Of a stretch of DNA of 64,000 bases, positions 35,922-45,753 are shown piece after piece. Position 1 is the first letter of the stretch. Every line of letters starts with the position of its first letter. The notes under the pieces are model-generated. The model had not been told where the DNA came from. It worked only from the letters and a program-made list of their open reading frames with translations, and searched no databases. Origin of the DNA: an uncultured virus (IMG/VR IMGVR_UViG_3300029705_003235) (lineage: Duplodnaviria; Heunggongvirae; Uroviricota; Caudoviricetes); the IMG/VR virus record IMGVR_UViG_3300029705_003235; one strand, 5' to 3'. A program made the translations under genes and the position numbers.

Positions 35922-37532
35922 TTATATAAACAGAATTCCACGCTCGTCATAGACACTTTCTGTTGTGTCATTACCGCAGCGGATGGCACGGTCAAGAGCC
36001 ATAATGGTTGCAACAGCACCATCAATCTTTTCAGTGGATTTTTCCTTGTCCGGCTTTATGTTTCCGGCAGGGTCAGTCCTTACATAAATGTTATCCATCA
36101 TCCAGTGCAGAACCGGGTGTCCGCCATGAGCAATTCGCTCTTCAAGCACGAGCTTCATCAGCTCTTTAGTTGGTGGGGACATATCCTTAAACCCCTGACC
36201 GAAAGGAACAACAGTAAATCCCATACCCTCAAGGTTCTGAACCATTTGAACAGCACCCCAACGGTCAAATGCTATTTCACGGATGTTATATTTTTCACCG
36301 AGCTTTTCGATGAATTTCTCTATAAATCCGTAATGAATAACATTACCCTCGGTTGATTTCAGAACTCCTTGCTTTTCCCAAAGGTCATAAGGAACGTGGT
36401 CCCTCCGAACTCGAAGGTCAAGGTTATCTTCTGGAATCCAAAAGTAAGGAAGAATAATGTATTTGTCGGCTTCATCCATTGGTGGGAACACAAGGACGAA
36501 AGCGGTGATATCGGTTGTGCTTGAAAGGTCAAGTCCACCATAACAAACTCTGCCGTGAAGTTCTTCTTCATCCACAGCAAAGGAACATTTATCCCATTTT
36601 TCCATCGGCATCCACCGAACCACCTGTTTAACCCACTGGTTAAGTCGCAACTGACGGAAAGCATTTTCTTCAGCCGGATTTTGCTTTGCCGATTCACAGG
36701 CAGCACGAACTTTGTCTACGCCAACCGTAATGCCGAGAGAGGGGTTTGCCTTTTTCCATACTTTAGGGTCAGTCCAGTCATCCTCTTCATCAGCACCGTA
36801 TATCACGGGATAGAATGTTGGGTCAATTTTTCTGCCCTCAATGATGTCCTTTGCCTTCTGGTGTGTTTCATAGCAGATGGAATGAGTATCTGTCCCGGCT
36901 GTGGTGATCAGGAAATACAGAGGTTGCATTCGAGCATCACCTGAACCTTTGGTCATAACATCAAACAGCTTTCTGTTCGGCTGCGTGTGAAGCTCGTCAA
37001 ATACAACTCCGTGGATATTGAAGCCGTGCTTCGAGTATGCTTCAGCCGACAGTACTTGGTAGAAGCTGTTGGTTGGAGTGAAGATGATTCTTTTCTGCGA
37101 AGCAAGGATTTTAACTCGCTTTGCAAGAGCCGGACACATCTTTACCATATCGGCAGCAACCTCAAAAACGATTGAAGCCTGCTGTCGGTCAGCAGCACAG
37201 CCATAAACTTCGGCTCGTTCCTCACCATCACCACAGCACAATAAAAGGGCAATCGCAGCCGCAAGCTCCGATTTGCCCATCTTTTTTGGTATTTCAATGT
37301 AGGCGGTGTTGAACTGCCGATAACCATTCGGCTTGAGTGTTCCGAAAAGGTCACGGATTATTTGCTCTTGCCAATCAATCAGCTCGAATGGTTTTCCTGC
37401 CCATGTACCTTTGGTGTGGCACAGGCATTCAATAAAGTTCACAGCATAGTCCGCAGCATCTTTATTATAGGATGAGTCCTTTGCCATAAACTTTGTAGGG
37501 GTATATTTCTTCAGTTTTTTCGTTTCAATCAC
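35922..37532 (-). CDS. terL: Terminase large subunit
   Basis: IPKKMGKSEL Walker A, VVFDELH, GGLDLSSTTD, KIDG. Confidence 0.95.
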   Translation of the reverse strand: MIETKKLKKYTPTKFMAKDSSYNKDAADYAVNFIECLCHTKGTWAGKPFELIDWQEQIIRDLFGTLKPNGYRQFNTAYIEIPKKMGKSELAAAIALLLCCGDGEERAEVYGCAADRQQASIVFEVAADMVKMCPALAKRVKILASQKRIIFTPTNSFYQVLSAEAYSKHGFNIHGVVFDELHTQPNRKLFDVMTKGSGDARMQPLYFLITTAGTDTHSICYETHQKAKDIIEGRKIDPTFYPVIYGADEEDDWTDPKVWKKANPSLGITVGVDKVRAACESAKQNPAEENAFRQLRLNQWVKQVVRWMPMEKWDKCSFAVDEEELHGRVCYGGLDLSSTTDITAFVLVFPPMDEADKYIILPYFWIPEDNLDLRVRRDHVPYDLWEKQGVLKSTEGNVIHYGFIEKFIEKLGEKYNIREIAFDRWGAVQMVQNLEGMGFTVVPFGQGFKDMSPPTKELMKLVLEERIAHGGHPVLHWMMDNIYVRTDPAGNIKPDKEKSTEKIDGAVATIMALDRAIRCGNDTTESVYDERGILFI

Positions 37533-38401: not shown

Positions 38402-38605
38402 TTAATTGCCACTTTGACAACTATGGATTTTTTCAATGATTTTATTCTGTTCGGCAGCATCAACACCGATGCTTTCAAGTGCCTCTCTCGTTCCGCAATC
38501 AGGGCAGATTTGGCTTTCATTGTCTACCCTTGATAAAGCGGAAGCTCCATAGTAAGTGTTCCCGCATTTGGAACATACTTTTCTTTTATGGGTGTTAGTT
38601 TTCAT
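38402..38605 (-). CDS. Small zinc-finger protein
   Basis: CSKCG...ALSRVDN...ICPDCGTREALESIG. Confidence 0.75.
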   Translation of the reverse strand: MKTNTHKRKVCSKCGNTYYGASALSRVDNESQICPDCGTREALESIGVDAAEQNKIIEKIHSCQSGN

Positions 38606-39068
38606 TCTTGATACCTTCCTTACTGTCAAGCAGAGCTTGGTATAGTATTGTTTCATCGAATTTAAAGTCATGGTAGCCCTCAAGACAAGTCCAATAATAT
38701 GCTTTGGTAGGTATGCCGAGAGGTCGTTCCTCGTGCATTATATATACAAAGCATTTTCTGTGCCTTATCTTGCCTGATTTAATACCCTTGATGTCAAGCT
38801 CCAGTTCCTTCTTGTAATAAAAGTTGGGAAATCCCTCATATGCATCAAGCCGTCTCTCATCGTAGGGTGTAACTTCCCAAACCGCAAGTGGAACGGACGA
38901 GCCTTGCTTTTCCTCAATGGTGAGGTATGAACCTGTCTTGCTTCCTTTGAAGAGAAGCTGATAGTTTTCAAGAACCGCAGTTCCTATGATTCTTGAGCTG
39001 GGGCATCTGTATTTCATCTGCCCAATGTTGAGGTTGCTGCCGTAGGCTAAGTAGTAGCGTTTTTCCAT
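38595..39068 (-). CDS. Gamma-glutamylcyclotransferase (AIG2-like)
   Basis: YLAYGSNL, LDAYEGFPNFY. Confidence 0.9.
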   Translation of the reverse strand: MEKRYYLAYGSNLNIGQMKYRCPSSRIIGTAVLENYQLLFKGSKTGSYLTIEEKQGSSVPLAVWEVTPYDERRLDAYEGFPNFYYKKELELDIKGIKSGKIRHRKCFVYIMHEERPLGIPTKAYYWTCLEGYHDFKFDETILYQALLDSKEGIKNEN

Positions 39069-39153
39069 GTTTTCTTTCATCCTTTCTGAAGGTAATTGTC
39101 CTTCTACCACCTTAAGACCGCCGAAGCGGTCGGTGGGGCTGTGCCTATGACCT

Positions 39154-40104
39154 TCAAGCAACCCTTGAGGTATGTCTAAAGGCTGTGTCCCCTGTAAGGT
39201 TTCTTGTAAGGATGTCTCTTGCGGTTTCAAATTCCTTTCCGATGAAGCCGAGGCGGAGAAGCCAAGTTCTCATTGCATATTTTGGGTTTTCGTTTTGCTG
39301 TGGCTTTGAGCTTGCCGTGCGTACTGTTTTTGCAAGGTTTGAAAGGGCAAGGCAAAGCTGAATGTAACTCTTGAGCTGTCCTGCGTGTAAGCCGTTCAGT
39401 TTTCCGTTGGAGGGTTCATCAAATTGGAAAAGTCTGAATTCAATAGTTCCTTTCGTAAAGGTAGCATGGAGGTTTAGCATATGGTATCGGCTGTCGTTGT
39501 AATGGTTGCTTCTGCCATAGTTTGCACCGTTGCAGTCGTACCAAATGTCTGCAAGTGCTGACATCGTTTTCGGTTTCTTGCGGTTCAGGGTGTCAAGGAA
39601 TCGTGGGTTAACCGTTCGGCAGTAGCTTGAAATTCTGTCTCGGTCGATTTTAAGGCTGTCTGTAAGAAGCCTTTCGTGACTTGCCATAATGTTTGCAAGA
39701 TTGCGAAGGGTCTGTGGTGTGTGTCCCTTTGCACCTATGTGAATGTGAACTCCGCATCCTCGTGAAGCATCGCTTTTTGCTCCGGCTTTTCGTAGCTTTC
39801 TTATAAGCTCCTGTAAAAGCTCTATGTCCTTGTATGTAAGGATGGGGGTTACAAGTTCGCACTTTTGACTGTCAGCTCCGTGAATACTGCTATCCTTTTG
39901 GAATTTCCATTCTCGACCTTCTGAATCCCAAGCCGACCAAGTGCAGTATCCGTTTCTTGCCTCGGTGTTTTGGTAGCGGTCTGTTCCAAAAAGGTCGGCT
40001 GCAATCTTGGCTGCCTTGTCCCTTGTGATGTTGTTCATCTCAACCTCGACCCCAATGGTCTGTTTCTTCATTTCTTCTACAAAAAGTGTTGTTTTTTCGC
40101 TCAT
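39154..40104 (-). CDS. Amidoligase family protein (COOH-NH2 ligase)
   Basis: IGVEVEM, DSSI, CELVTP, CGVHIHIG, RYHMLN, TIEFRLF. Confidence 0.9.
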   Translation of the reverse strand: MSEKTTLFVEEMKKQTIGVEVEMNNITRDKAAKIAADLFGTDRYQNTEARNGYCTWSAWDSEGREWKFQKDSSIHGADSQKCELVTPILTYKDIELLQELIRKLRKAGAKSDASRGCGVHIHIGAKGHTPQTLRNLANIMASHERLLTDSLKIDRDRISSYCRTVNPRFLDTLNRKKPKTMSALADIWYDCNGANYGRSNHYNDSRYHMLNLHATFTKGTIEFRLFQFDEPSNGKLNGLHAGQLKSYIQLCLALSNLAKTVRTASSKPQQNENPKYAMRTWLLRLGFIGKEFETARDILTRNLTGDTAFRHTSRVA

Positions 40105-40128
40105 TACCAAGCCCTCCATAAATCTTTG

Positions 40129-40233
40129 TTTTGTCCCTTTCGGTAGTAACATATTACCTCTAAAAACACATAATATCCAGATGTTTTTCGGCATATACTA
40201 CACAAAGATTTAAGGGTTAAATTGTGTATATTA
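40129..40233 (-). promoter_or_regulatory. Repeated moron promoter/operator, copy B
   Basis: TGGATA-17 bp-TAATAT with the same dyad. Confidence 0.72.
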
Positions 40234-41514: not shown

Positions 41515-43164
41515 TCAAAGCTCAATTTGTGTACTCCACACAATGCCTGAAAGTACAAAGTATACGCACGGCAAAGCGACACCGTTGCCCCACATTTTAT
41601 ATTCCGAGGCATCGGAGTAAGGGGCCTTGAGCCATCGAATAATCTGCTTGAGGGTTTTTGGCTTCTTGCTTGGGTCCGTAACCTTGCGATATGTTTCAAA
41701 CACATCATACCAGAATCTTAAATCCTCGGTTGTTGGTTCGCTGGTCTCAAGAGAGGAACACCACCAATCTGGGAAACCTTGCAGTCTCGCACACTCGGTT
41801 GGTGTTAATCTCCGAACCATATAACTTGTCTCAACCACACCATTTTGGTAACCGGGGTTCGTTCCGTTAACAAGTGTATTTGAAATATCCTCAAGGGGTG
41901 ATTGGCATTCAGCTTTCATCTGTGGATAGAATGAAACTGGCTGTGCTAATGCACCGGGGCCTTTAGCAACAAGAGTCGGTGAAAGCTCCTCTTCAATAGA
42001 AGGCTTATATAAAGCATTCTTGCCTTGATTGAATGCTGCCCGGTCTATGCCATAGCATGGTTCAGAAACACACGCAGCATCTTTATAATCTCTTGAGAGA
42101 AGTGTAGGAGCTTTTCCTTTTTCGACTTGCATATAATAACCAGTAGTTATGGCATACACATCCGGCACATCAACTATAGCAATGCCTCCTTGATTGCAAG
42201 TAGGCGGTGTACCGCTTTTGTCAATTGTGCGAGATGTCTTTGCTTCATATATTCCACTGTGCGGATTATCCGATTTCATCGCATTGCTGTCAGCCGAGCT
42301 GATACCATAAGCTATAGGAGGGTTCATTATCAGCGGTACATTTCCACCGCCAGTCCCCATTCGAGAACTTAAGGTTTGTACCACACCATCGTCATTAAGA
42401 CGGACACGGCTGTCGCACGGATGGTTTTCAATGTTTACGCATTCGCTTGTCTCATCAAAGCAACTTTCAGAACACCGGGTAGCTCTTTGCCACGCTCCGA
42501 AGCTCTCCGCAGAATACCCTGACAAGCCTTCTGACTCAAATAATATTTTTCCGGCACTCCCACTTGCAAAATCTGCGACAAGGAAGATTCTACGCCTGCG
42601 TTGGGGCACTCCCCAATGTTGAGCATCAAGAGTTCTGTATGCAATGCTCCATCCGTCACCCAAGAGGATGTCGGAGTATGCCCATTTGTCTTTTGGAGGC
42701 ATAGGCACCTCGGCTGTCTGTCCTGTGATGCCGATGATGGCTTCGAGGACTGCCTTGAAGTCCCTTCCTTGATTGGAGGAGAAAGCACCGGGGACATTTT
42801 CCCAGACGATGTATCGTGGGTATTTTCCATTGGTTGCACACCTCATTTCTTTTACAATTCTTATTGCTTCAAAGAACAGACTGGATTGTTCACCTTCCAG
42901 TCCGGCTCTTTTGCCTGCAACCGAAAGGTCGGTGCAAGGTGAACCAAATGTAATAATATCAACTGGCTCAATCTTTGCACCATCCATCTTTGAAACATCA
43001 CCATAGTGTTTCATAAACGGCAGCCGTTTTGTTGTTACCCGTATAGGGAACGGTTCAATCTCCGATGCCCATACAGGAACGACCCCGGCAAGTAACCCAC
43101 CAAGAGGGAAACCGCCGGAGCCGTCAAACAGACTGCCGAGAGTCATTTTTTTATTTTCTTGCAT
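41515..43164 (-). CDS. DNA (cytosine-5) methyltransferase
   Basis: LFDGSGG, GSPC, WENVPG, PQRRRR, RRLTPTECARLQGFPD, GNGV. Confidence 0.95.
   Translation of the reverse strand: MQENKKMTLGSLFDGSGGFPLGGLLAGVVPVWASEIEPFPIRVTTKRLPFMKHYGDVSKMDGAKIEPVDIITFGSPCTDLSVAGKRAGLEGEQSSLFFEAIRIVKEMRCATNGKYPRYIVWENVPGAFSSNQGRDFKAVLEAIIGITGQTAEVPMPPKDKWAYSDILLGDGWSIAYRTLDAQHWGVPQRRRRIFLVADFASGSAGKILFESEGLSGYSAESFGAWQRATRCSESCFDETSECVNIENHPCDSRVRLNDDGVVQTLSSRMGTGGGNVPLIMNPPIAYGISSADSNAMKSDNPHSGIYEAKTSRTIDKSGTPPTCNQGGIAIVDVPDVYAITTGYYMQVEKGKAPTLLSRDYKDAACVSEPCYGIDRAAFNQGKNALYKPSIEEELSPTLVAKGPGALAQPVSFYPQMKAECQSPLEDISNTLVNGTNPGYQNGVVETSYMVRRLTPTECARLQGFPDWWCSSLETSEPTTEDLRFWYDVFETYRKVTDPSKKPKTLKQIIRWLKAPYSDASEYKMWGNGVALPCVYFVLSGIVWSTQIEL
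42435..42830 (-). CDS. Nested alternate-frame ORF, M.EcoHK31I beta-subunit-like
   Basis: GAGGTG RBS before ATG 42830; SLSQILQ..VPEKYYLSQKACQGILRRASERGKELP..L..AL. Confidence 0.7.
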   Translation of the reverse strand: MENTHDTSSGKMSPVLSPPIKEGTSRQSSKPSSASQDRQPRCLCLQKTNGHTPTSSWVTDGALHTELLMLNIGECPNAGVESSLSQILQVGVPEKYYLSQKACQGILRRASERGKELPGVLKVALMRQANA

Positions 43165-43174
43165 GGCTTACCTC

Positions 43175-44422
43175 CTAAAACTGCGGAATAGTTTCTTCAT
43201 CCTCAACTTCGGAGTAAGGAATGGTAACGCCATCACGGATGAGCTGTACTTTTTCGGATGAACCGACCTGCTCAATGAAACGGCTTACTATAACATCACA
43301 GAACTTTTCATCAAGCTCAATTGTTCGGCAGATACGATTTGACTGCTCACAAGTAATGAGTGTTGAACCACTGCCACCAAATGGGTCAAGAACAATTGCG
43401 TTTGTCATACTTGAATTCATTATTGGGTAAGCAAGAAGCGGTATCGGCTTCATTGTAGGATGGTCACCATTCTTTTTCGGTTTGTCGAATTCCCAAATGG
43501 TCGATTCTTTTCTGCCAGTGTACCACTGGTGTTTACCTTTCTTTTTCCAACCGAACAACACAGGCTCGTGCTGCCATTGGTAAGGTGAACGACCGAGAAC
43601 AAGGGACTGTTTCTTCCAAATACAAGTGCCGGAAAGATAAAATCCAGCATCATTAAATGCTTTTCTGAAATTCAATCCTTCGGTGTCTGCATGGAACACA
43701 TAAATACTCGCATCATCTGCCATTGCGTTTTCTGTATTAATAAACGCATCAAGCAGAAAATGATAGAATTTGTCATCAGCCATGTTATCATTTTTGATTT
43801 TCCCGGCTGACCCTTCATAATTTACATTGTACGGAGGGTCTGTAATAACAAGATTTGCCTTTTCTTCACCCATCAGCAAAGCGAAGGTTTCAGCCTTTGT
43901 GCTATCACCGCACACGAGCTTGTGTCTGCCAAGTAGCCACACATCACCGGGTTTTGTTTTTACTGGTTTTTTCAGTTCGGCTTCAACATCGAAGCCATCA
44001 TCTTTGATTCCATCTTTAAGTGTGTCTTTGAAGAGGTCATCAATTTCAGCAGGTTCAAAACCAGTAAGTGAAACATCGAAATCCGAACCTTGAAGGTCAG
44101 CTATCAAAAGAGCAAGTTTATCCTTGTCCCAATCACCGCTGATTTTGTTAAGAGCTACATTGAGTGCTTTTTCTTTTTCTTCTGAAAGTTCTACAACTAC
44201 ACATTCAATTTCAGTCATTCCCATAGCCATTAAGACTTTGAGCCTCTGGTGACCTCCGACCACATTGCCAGTTGTCTTATTCCAAATAACGGGTTCAACA
44301 TATCCGAACTCCTCAAGGGAGCGTTTCAGCTTTTCATATTCAGCATCACCGGGTTTCAAATCTTTACGGGGGTTGTAGTCCGCAGGCATAAGCTCGGATA
44401 CTTTTATTTTTTCAATTAACAT
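43175..44422 (-). CDS. ParB-domain N6/N4 DNA methyltransferase
   Basis: YNPR...VGGHQR; TDPPYN; HPTMKP; LDPFGGSGST. Confidence 0.93.
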   Translation of the reverse strand: MLIEKIKVSELMPADYNPRKDLKPGDAEYEKLKRSLEEFGYVEPVIWNKTTGNVVGGHQRLKVLMAMGMTEIECVVVELSEEKEKALNVALNKISGDWDKDKLALLIADLQGSDFDVSLTGFEPAEIDDLFKDTLKDGIKDDGFDVEAELKKPVKTKPGDVWLLGRHKLVCGDSTKAETFALLMGEEKANLVITDPPYNVNYEGSAGKIKNDNMADDKFYHFLLDAFINTENAMADDASIYVFHADTEGLNFRKAFNDAGFYLSGTCIWKKQSLVLGRSPYQWQHEPVLFGWKKKGKHQWYTGRKESTIWEFDKPKKNGDHPTMKPIPLLAYPIMNSSMTNAIVLDPFGGSGSTLITCEQSNRICRTIELDEKFCDVIVSRFIEQVGSSEKVQLIRDGVTIPYSEVEDEETIPQF

Positions 44423-45204
44423 ACCAGACCCCACTCAGCGAAAGCTTCAAAACCACCAACGGAGCGGATGAACTCTCTTGCTGTTTCCACAATTTCATTG
44501 TAAGGAATACCATTAACGGTTTCATCACCGATTGCACAGCAAAGTTCAATCGGCTGCCCGGTTCTCTGTGCTTCAAGCCATGCATAAATATTTACACTTA
44601 CATCTGCTTTGGATAAGTCTTTACCATGCAGACCACCGCCTGTTACACTGTCAGCCATATCGCTACCGAGCTTTCGGTTCGTGGCCCCGGTGTCTACATC
44701 TGTACCACCAGTCCAGTCTCCAATAGGGTTGATTTCCGCATTTGGGAATAAAGAACGCAATACATCAGAACTCGCATTGCTCTGGCAAATAATAAGACGG
44801 CTTCCGTCTTTGATGTACTTGCCATCAAAAGGAAACTGTTCATATATACCTTTTGCAATGTTTGCAAGTGTCTGCTGTTCATAAGTAACGGGTGTTCCTT
44901 TAAAAATTCCATTATCACCGCAACGGATGATTCCATCCTGATTACGAGCAAGATGCTCATCCTGCGGAGTGATTGCAATGTTGCACATAAGGTTTGCACC
45001 GCCTATACGGTTTATGGCTTTTGCAACATCAGTTTTGTCGATTGGAGCAGAGGTTTCGATAATCGCATGGCAAACACCATGTCCAATTAACACCTCAACT
45101 GCAACCTTTGGGTCTTTTTGAGCATTGTATGCTAAATCAACAATTGCTCCTGCAATTCTGTCTGCCACCTTATCGGGGTGAGAGGGATTCACTTTTTCAA
45201 ACAT
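44416..45204 (-). CDS. metK: Short S-adenosylmethionine synthetase
   Basis: HPDKVADRI, GDNG, GGTDVDTGATNRK, GGGLHGKDLSKAD. Confidence 0.82.
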   Translation of the reverse strand: MFEKVNPSHPDKVADRIAGAIVDLAYNAQKDPKVAVEVLIGHGVCHAIIETSAPIDKTDVAKAINRIGGANLMCNIAITPQDEHLARNQDGIIRCGDNGIFKGTPVTYEQQTLANIAKGIYEQFPFDGKYIKDGSRLIICQSNASSDVLRSLFPNAEINPIGDWTGGTDVDTGATNRKLGSDMADSVTGGGLHGKDLSKADVSVNIYAWLEAQRTGQPIELCCAIGDETVNGIPYNEIVETAREFIRSVGGFEAFAEWGLVC

Positions 45205-45207
45205 AAA

Positions 45208-45753
45208 TCATCGTCCTTTCCGAGCATTCAATAAACGCTCCATTAAATCGTCCTGCGGATTTGAACCACCATATTCCGTAGAACAGTTTTCTTTTACTAC
45301 TTGGTAAATCTGATACCAAGTTTGATTGACTTGCTTCATATAGGTTTGGCTCATCGCCACATACGGAGATGCTATAGCATTACCCGTTGTAGGATGCTTT
45401 GCAAGGAATCCGTATTCAGAAATACATTCCTCACATTGAATCCATCTCGACACACTCATTGCATATTGCTCAATGAGCTGTGTGTTAACAAGCTGCTCAC
45501 AACCTCGTTCTCGAAGCCACATCCATGTATCCCTATATACAGCTTCCGCACACAAGTCTTTTCCATTTTTCTGTTCAGCCTTTAGGTATTCTTTAATTGG
45601 CGGTACATCAACACCTTCAAAGCTGACGGGTTCAGGCAGAGTTATTACACTTGCGGTTTTTGTTTTGCCGCTTGCAATTTTGTCGGTGAGTGCTTTTGGC
45701 TTTCTGCCTGCACCGACACGCTGACCGCCTCGGTTCGTACCGTCTTTTGCCAC
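45208..45753 (-). CDS. terS: Terminase small subunit (P27 family)
   Basis: RGGQRVGAGRKPK; HPTTG...SPYV; follows HNH and cos. Confidence 0.85.
   Translation of the reverse strand: MAKDGTNRGGQRVGAGRKPKALTDKIASGKTKTASVITLPEPVSFEGVDVPPIKEYLKAEQKNGKDLCAEAVYRDTWMWLRERGCEQLVNTQLIEQYAMSVSRWIQCEECISEYGFLAKHPTTGNAIASPYVAMSQTYMKQVNQTWYQIYQVVKENCSTEYGGSNPQDDLMERLLNARKGR

Follow-up and report, generated by a model that had tools for sequence, protein, structure and literature searches.

A methyltransferase gene and the reading frame nested within it

The window analysed here is a stretch of 64,000 nucleotides (nt) from an uncultured virus of the Caudoviricetes (IMG/VR record IMGVR_UViG_3300029705_003235). 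Its minus strand carries the coding sequence (CDS) of a C5 cytosine DNA methyltransferase (MTase) at 41515..43164, and a shorter open reading frame (ORF) at 42435..42830 lies wholly inside that gene, on the same strand and in another frame. The MTase gene starts at ATG 43164, which is preceded by AGGAGG, and encodes a chain of 549 amino acids (aa) with motifs I to X in one frame. The chain matches PF00145 in Pfam (E 7.3e-42) and TIGR00675 (dcm) in NCBIfam (E 1.8e-36, 126.5 bits against a cut-off of 100.65). In its translation LFDGSGG, GSPC, ENVPG, QRRRR, RRLTPTECARLQGFP and GNGV correspond to motifs I, IV, VI, VIII, IX and X, so that the features characteristic of the PF00145 family, including the PC of motif IV, the ENV of motif VI and the QxRxR of motif VIII, are all found in a single polypeptide. 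On the minus strand, motif VI (ENVPG, residues 122-126) lies at 42787..42801, motif VIII (GVPQRRRR, residues 185-192) at 42589..42612 and motif IX (VRRLTPTECARLQGFP, residues 450-465) at 41770..41817; the RRLTPTECARLQGFP of motif IX (residues 451-465) and motif X are both part of this main chain.

The nested ORF comprises 131 codons from ATG 42830 (42828..42830, minus strand) followed by a TAA stop, which agrees with the description given in the first-pass annotation; the program-made ORF listing, which counts from a GTG, has it as 42435..42839 with 134 aa. The offset between the two starts (43164-42830 = 334) places the nested ORF in the +1 frame, and a +1-frame TGA (42845..42843) stands four codons ahead of its ATG. 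The GAGGTG proposed earlier as its own ribosome-binding site was found at 42844..42839, where this Shine-Dalgarno (SD)-like word is embedded in the main-frame codons GAA ATG AGG TGT; its GAGG ends 10 nt before the nested ATG, which is itself formed from a main-frame AAT and the G that follows it (Asn112-Gly113).

The predicted product falls into two parts. A leader (residues 2-82; 42585..42827, minus strand) overlaps main-frame motifs VI to VIII, with nested residues GKMSP lying over the ENVPG of motif VI. It is followed by a conserved tail (residues 83-131; 42438..42584, minus strand) whose nearly invariant columns read SLSQIL..KYYLS.KAC.GILRRA..RGK.LP..L..AL. The YYLS of the tail starts 67 nt downstream of motif VIII, and the ORF ends with ...GVLKVALMRQANA (RQANA), directly before the TAA. 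In the main frame the DNA of the tail encodes a poorly conserved linker (approximately residues 194-242).

Conservation of the nested frame in phages and prophages

Both start signals are maintained in relatives at sites that are synonymous in the main frame. Of 47 distinct start contexts, 43 contain GAA ATG AGG, with variation at synonymous sites nearby; its Arg codon is always AGG, and an Arg a few codons upstream uses five codons. Among 42 sequences with the start at the standard position, the main-frame codon that supplies the AT of the nested ATG is AAT in 33, GAT in 6 and CAT in 3, and is never xAC; because all three codons occur and xAC never does, the nested ATG outlasts changes in the main-frame residue. 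An SD-like word is found 4-12 nt ahead of the first ATG in 50 of 58 diverse relatives. In a few lineages the start lies later and the products are 74-96 residues long, but the tail is still included; these later starts upstream of the tail favour internal initiation over a frameshift after motif VIII and point to a dispensable leader.

The first-pass annotation had suggested checking whether the frame stays open across homologues, and it does so far beyond expectation. In a stretch fixed at 85 codons, which was not defined by the ORF itself and thus avoids circularity, 58 relatives with less than 80% nt identity have 7 stops in the +1 frame, where shuffling of synonymous codons predicts 126.3 (an 18-fold depletion), and 54 of the 58 loci are free of +1 stops against 7.0 expected, although these statistics overstate independence and are not exact probabilities because the relatives share ancestry. 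The equivalent test of the +2 frame gave 171 stops against 279 expected, a 1.6-fold depletion.

The codon position that is free to vary changes along the gene. Positional entropy was calculated from 25 relatives with less than 85% nt identity, drawn from 56 distinct sequences among 66 complete loci. Up to and through motif VIII no codon position varies more than the main-frame third (1.0-1.6 bits, compared with 0.15-0.6 for positions one and two), and the wobble positions across motif VIII itself have H3 of about 1.06-1.13. Between the end of motif VIII and the stop of the nested ORF, entropy at the main third position decreases to 0.17-0.56 and that at the first increases to 1.05-1.26, as in the wobble pattern of a +1-frame gene; beyond the nested stop, the main-frame type of pattern returns. 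Mean pairwise aa identity is 0.80 in the main frame and 0.41 in the +1 frame for an upstream control, 0.67 and 0.46 for the leader over motifs VI-VIII, and 0.91 and 0.85 for eight codons of the motif VIII strand, but 0.50 and 0.75 for the tail. The identity and entropy patterns together indicate that the last ~50 nested codons evolve as a +1-frame protein, and that the main chain uses this DNA as a loose linker. The protein-like ending SLSQILQVGVPEKYYLSQKACQGILRRASERGKELP to which the earlier annotation had drawn attention corresponds to nested residues 83-118, and is indeed better conserved than the main frame at that point. As judged from the aligned sequences, the order of residues in the leader is dictated by the main frame, and motifs such as GKMSP over ENVPG would be by-products of it. 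Overall, the nested ORF is very probably a real gene under +1-frame purifying selection, with conserved start signals.

The arrangement is widespread, with examples reaching from gut phages to phage P1. A tblastn search of 50,697 phage records with the nested ORF matched 150, including phage P1, Vibrio phages and mycobacteriophages, and in 30 of these at least 80% of the ORF was covered unbroken at 45-68% identity. Scans of larger collections matched at least 572-600 stretches, from which 240 viral-contig loci and 80 loci from bacterial species genomes were sampled. Family members were recognised by a +1-frame ORF that is already open upstream of motif VIII and carries the pattern (Y/F)(Y/F)LS..AC.GIL 55-100 nt past that motif; in the locus studied here the tail motif lies at +67 nt. 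A tail in the +1 frame and at this distance was present in all 6 annotated records, in 211 of the 240 viral loci and in 75 of the 80 loci from genomes. Of the remainder, 23 viral and 4 genome loci were cut before motif VIII and one genome locus has motif VIII at its edge. The other 6 viral loci were missed by the pattern; inspection by eye identified variant +1-frame tails in five and, in the sixth (L173), a +1-frame tail further downstream. The tail is consequently present in the +1 frame in 298 of 298 loci whose motif VIII lies away from the locus end (6 annotated, 217 viral and 75 genome). L173 has extra codons after motif VIII, and its tail, ESHLSDILERNPNPRYNLSPKA..., begins ~40 codons downstream of that motif.

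Standard annotation was expected to miss the nested ORF, and this is borne out in five of seven deposited records (Javan261, NatCom_9287, P1, Vibrio phage 24 and Omega), which have no CDS in the nested frame. P1 dmt, Vibrio phage 24 and mycobacteriophage Omega contain unannotated +1-frame nested ORFs of 153-162 codons with the same tail. The exceptions are Streptococcus phage MM1, in which ORF14 is annotated, and FP_Toutatis, in which an annotated CDS runs into the tail. In a library of 1.84 billion representative proteins, 3,472 match the nested ORF at E up to 0.001, many of them ~130-150 aa long. Pfam and NCBIfam profiles gave no hit in the nested ORF or in its P1 and Omega counterparts, and the ESM Atlas returned only unnamed clusters of 97-132 aa for the nested protein.

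A candidate small chain for the methyltransferase

An AF2 model of the nested product, built with 65 homologues, has residues 1-40 disordered, a low-confidence hairpin at 41-59 and a helical tail at 84-131, with the leader mostly disordered and pLDDT above 90 for residues 100-130. When the main chain and nested residues 38-131 were modelled together alongside three controls, the pair reached an ipSAE of 0.72, while the best control reached 0.00. This mark is attained by 116 of 157 solved complexes and by 2 of 215 mismatched pairs, counts that hold only roughly here because the alignments were custom-made. At least 85% of contacts are shared between the runs, and partner pLDDT is at least 67. 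The tightest predicted contacts join nested residues 87-89 and 96-98 (QIL and YYL) to main residues 449-461, which form the motif IX strand and helix; further contacts are predicted between nested 42-44 and main 165-168, and the interface also takes in main linker residues 205-223 and parts of the variable region. This predicted docking on motif IX makes a small subunit acting in trans the likeliest role for the nested product.

The post-motif-VIII segment begins the small (recognition) domain in M.HhaI-type structures. Profile alignment with hhalign places nested residues 56-112 on residues 283-338 of E. coli Dcm, directly after the Dcm motif VIII, aligning IGECPNA of the nested protein with ISECFPA and SLSQILQVGVPEKYYLS with TLAQLLDPMVEAKYILT. 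In Dcm this segment belongs to the same chain and frame as motif VIII, whereas the nested segment cannot be in cis because it overlaps motif VIII in another frame. The alignment and the complex model suggest that the nested tail takes the place of the stretch found in cis behind motif VIII in single-chain enzymes.

The architectures of relatives bear directly on this point. Pattern-based classification of 169 distinct loci assigned 142 to the arrangement seen here, with one long MTase chain and a nested ORF whose stop lies 36-48 codons beyond YYLS. Another 13 have a motif VIII frame that stops 62-112 codons after that motif and a +1 frame that continues from leader to tail, variable region and motif IX; the remaining 14 are unclassified, and some of these are Omega-like with three ORFs. 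Other matching proteins of 300-600 aa (for example P0013, P0014, P0031, P0155 and P0210) likewise have an N-terminal nested match followed by the variable region, motif IX and motif X. In these fused forms essential motifs are found only in the +1 frame, and this is the strongest indirect evidence for its translation and for its being part of the enzyme.

Several matching sequences (P0013, P0014, P0026, P0061, P0109 and L001, which is FP_Toutatis 1171-2582) look like circularly permuted C5 MTases, with motif I (LFDGIGGFP) placed behind motif X at the C-terminus. For Toutatis, the frame with motifs IV and VI runs into the nested tail and motif VIII is in a different frame. Database proteins of ~240 aa that join motifs I-VI to the tail (e.g. 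P0213, P0234 and P0263; P0213 is on 19 contigs) were considered as a further natural architecture and set aside, as their switch points vary between lineages, most are singletons and the form occurs in 1 of 75 genome loci (L249). They are probably frameshift alleles or errors, visible because the +1 frame is open, and may otherwise represent a functional split.

On balance the data favour a real gene overprinted in the +1 frame of a phage C5 MTase that makes a small partner chain for the enzyme. Ribosomes would start at the nested SD word and ATG 42830 inside the MTase message, as the conserved signals imply. The first ~80 codons, their sequence set by main-frame motifs VI-VIII, would yield a largely unconstrained, disordered leader, and the conserved helical tail of ~50 residues would follow, encoded by the same DNA as the loose main-chain linker after motif VIII. 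The tail would bind the MTase in trans where the large and small domains meet, packed onto the strand of motif IX and the variable (target-recognition) region; this would be approximately the position that the post-motif-VIII segment occupies in E. coli Dcm and other C5 MTases made of a single chain. The active enzyme would then consist of a large and a small chain from one stretch of DNA. That the nested product serves as a small trans-acting chain of the MTase is probable from the models and alignments, and the two-chain phage MTase put forward in the first-pass annotation is the best-supported reading by complex prediction and by the fused forms in relatives.

Several points weigh against this proposal. 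The translation of the nested protein, its binding and its requirement for activity are inferred from sequences and models. The main chain may be active alone, because all ten motifs are in one frame. The leader, over its first ~80 residues, shows no +1-frame aa constraint even though the frame is kept open, and the shared ancestry of the relatives tempers the shuffle statistics. The Dcm match is a weak one (probability 9.7%, with a pairwise E of 0.0033), no solved structure was hit at E up to 10 by a profile built from 65 nested proteins, and the complex prediction may reflect the model's memory of the single-chain fold, given that structures of single-chain C5 MTases have been solved. An AF2 model of the fused protein P0004 (leader, tail, variable region and motifs IX-X; mean pLDDT 67.6) was also compared with the PDB by VIA-align and returned only unrelated chains at Z of 4.2 or below; the identification of the tail as the post-VIII segment is thus without structural confirmation, and this comparison says nothing either way.

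The foremost alternative is that the nested protein, though real, is no structural component of the enzyme but a regulator or accessory in its own right, acting on MTase activity, timing or specificity or serving an unrelated phage function, and shares the locus only because overprinting ties its dose to the MTase message. The completeness of the main chain fits such a protein, as does a tail that is a small helical unit of no known family, and conservation of the nested stop in 142 of 169 loci means that most lineages keep a separate small protein. However, in the 13 split loci the tail is the N-terminal part of the very chain that carries the variable region and motifs IX-X, none of the 298 loci examined has it apart from a C5 MTase gene, and it is predicted to contact motif IX and the variable region. 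An independent role is accordingly considered unlikely.

Less probable still is a route to the tail that relies mainly on +1 ribosomal frameshifting after motif VIII, which would produce a truncated isoform, with motifs I-VIII and the tail, alongside the full-length enzyme. Selection in the +1 frame does start exactly where motif VIII ends, rare Arg codons (AGG and AGA) occur within the RRRR run, and the leader is free of aa constraint. On the other hand, a frameshift has no need of a +1 frame that is open for ~75 codons upstream of motif VIII, nor of an SD word and ATG held at synonymous sites, and where the first ATG of a lineage comes later, it is still upstream of the tail. Furthermore, no conserved shift site is visible, because the motif VIII wobble positions vary freely at the H3 values given above. 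A small chain initiated internally accounts better for these features, and the frameshift is judged improbable.

The first-pass annotation had likened the nested chain to the beta chain of M.EcoHK31I, an E. coli enzyme that recognises YGGCCR. According to two papers (PMC2836561, PMC3404938), the alpha chain of this enzyme holds motifs I-VIII, motif X as well as the recognition domain, and the beta chain, which is encoded wholly within the alpha gene in another frame and associates with the large chain, supplies motif IX. The locus studied here has the same layout, with a small chain wholly inside the gene of the large chain and in another frame. The contents differ: alpha lacks motif IX and beta, said in a supplement legend to hold only motif IX, provides it, whereas here the main chain has motifs I-X and the nested product is a helical post-VIII tail. 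Since the main chain already possesses motifs IX and X, and motif IX is absent from the nested ORF, the nested product is not the counterpart of beta, and that part of the earlier claim fails. Pfam is also blank on the nested ORF, and a homologue or functional equivalent of M.EcoHK31I beta that supplies motif IX in trans is therefore very improbable, whereas the two small chains may be distantly related in sequence; the analogy holds for layout and not for content. Moreover, M.EcoHK31I is a single characterised restriction-modification enzyme, whereas the present locus belongs to a very large family of phage and prophage MTases. A plasmid tblastn search, which matched 533 records, gave no MTase other than P1-type dmt/Dam-family genes among the 40 matches listed.

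Finally, an untranslated by-product of main-frame or nucleotide-level constraints, which would explain leader motifs such as GKMSP over ENVPG, is very improbable in view of the +1-frame coding pattern of codon positions in the tail, an 18-fold depletion of +1 stops against 1.6-fold in +2, conserved start signals and in-frame fusions to essential motifs in relatives.

Other systems place the proposed small chain in context. M.AquI (CYCGRG) is divided into a large chain with motifs I-VIII and a small chain with the distal variable region and motifs IX-X, according to PMC3404938. The 13 relatives of the 169 with a second chain that begins in the +1 frame inside the first share such a split; by contrast, the gene studied here is unsplit, with motifs I-X on the main chain, and only the N-terminal module of a would-be beta chain is left as the nested ORF. 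The GenBank record of Streptococcus phage MM1 lists ORF14, a putative methyltransferase, as a +1-frame gene within ORF13, a putative DNA methylase; ORF14 defines the PHROG family phrog_16143 and matches it from end to end (E 5.3e-82). The similarity of the studied ORF to this pair is distant, consisting of a weak match to phrog_16143 (E 3.2e-4, 21.2 bits, profile positions 82-133 of 139) and a tail alignment to ORF14 (44% over 36 residues, E 9e-07), and the MM1 entry is annotation only.

P1 Dmt, a bifunctional Dam-like and C5 MTase, contains a 162-codon +1-frame ORF with the same tail, ...LLSQVLEQTSIPQRYFLSSKACAGILRRGEKRRKSLPPLLQMAL, in the same place after motif VIII. It differs in having no SD-like word before the first nested ATG and in its C-terminal adenine MTase domain, and its nested ORF is unannotated both in the P1 record and among the P1-like plasmid matches listed. 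A wider form of the proposal, held tentatively and at somewhat less than even odds, is that all MTases of this family including P1 Dmt are obligate two-chain enzymes, in which an element formerly in cis has moved to the +1 frame, is initiated internally and docks on motif IX and the recognition domain. If so, the long ORF alone, whether cloned or annotated, would be an incomplete enzyme, and the main-chain linker and the nested tail, both products of the dual-coded stretch, would touch each other as they do in the complex model.

Neighbouring genes and implications

The MTase gene is situated in a phage or prophage region of DNA metabolism and packaging. Large (35922-37532) and small (45208-45753) terminase genes lie on the minus strand ~8 kb apart, and between them are a pair of MTase genes, an S-adenosylmethionine (SAM) synthetase-like ORF, a DUF4314 protein and an amidoligase pair; a SNF2 helicase and a VapE-like protein are also near the MTase module. 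Directly upstream of the C5 MTase, at 43175-44434 (minus strand), is a fusion of ParB_N and N6_N4 MTase domains, and the two genes occur in the same order in Streptococcus phage Javan261 and phage NatCom_9287. Upstream of both, at 44416-45204 (minus strand), a 262-aa ORF has the N-terminal domain as its sole SAM synthetase part (PF00438, E 3.1e-10) and may be a phage-encoded shortened SAM synthetase that supplies both MTases. Downstream of the module, at 38595-40194 (minus strand), is a pair of ORFs with similarity to Amidoligase_2 (E 3.5e-58) and to GGACT/AIG2-like proteins. Relatives of the main MTase (L007-L086) range from 486 to 784 aa because repeated-looking modules have been gained and lost between the linker and motif IX, which recalls the multispecific phage MTases.

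The deposited precedent for the nested gene is the MM1 ORF13/ORF14 annotation together with phrog_16143, and no functional study of it was found in the literature. The accessible text of papers on overlapping or nested phage MTase genes and on P1 dmt, including PMC6755750, does not describe the nested gene; the MM1 paper and the 1995 paper on EcoHK31I may say more.

Bacteria and phages rarely have conserved genes nested within another on the same strand, and gene callers discard such ORFs. Here, a nested gene with clear signals of selection is identified in hundreds of sampled phage and prophage MTase genes, and it is present even in phage P1, although the P1 record has no entry for it. By analogy, it is a very widespread variant of the EcoHK31I kind of arrangement, and would constitute a second natural example, beside M.EcoHK31I and with a much wider spread, of an MTase whose parts come from two reading frames of a single piece of DNA. 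Should activity or specificity depend on the small chain, then heterologous expression, REBASE-style specificity prediction and MTase engineering should include the nested chain. Furthermore, the gene pair would offer a clean system in which to follow the co-evolution of two proteins encoded by the same nucleotides.

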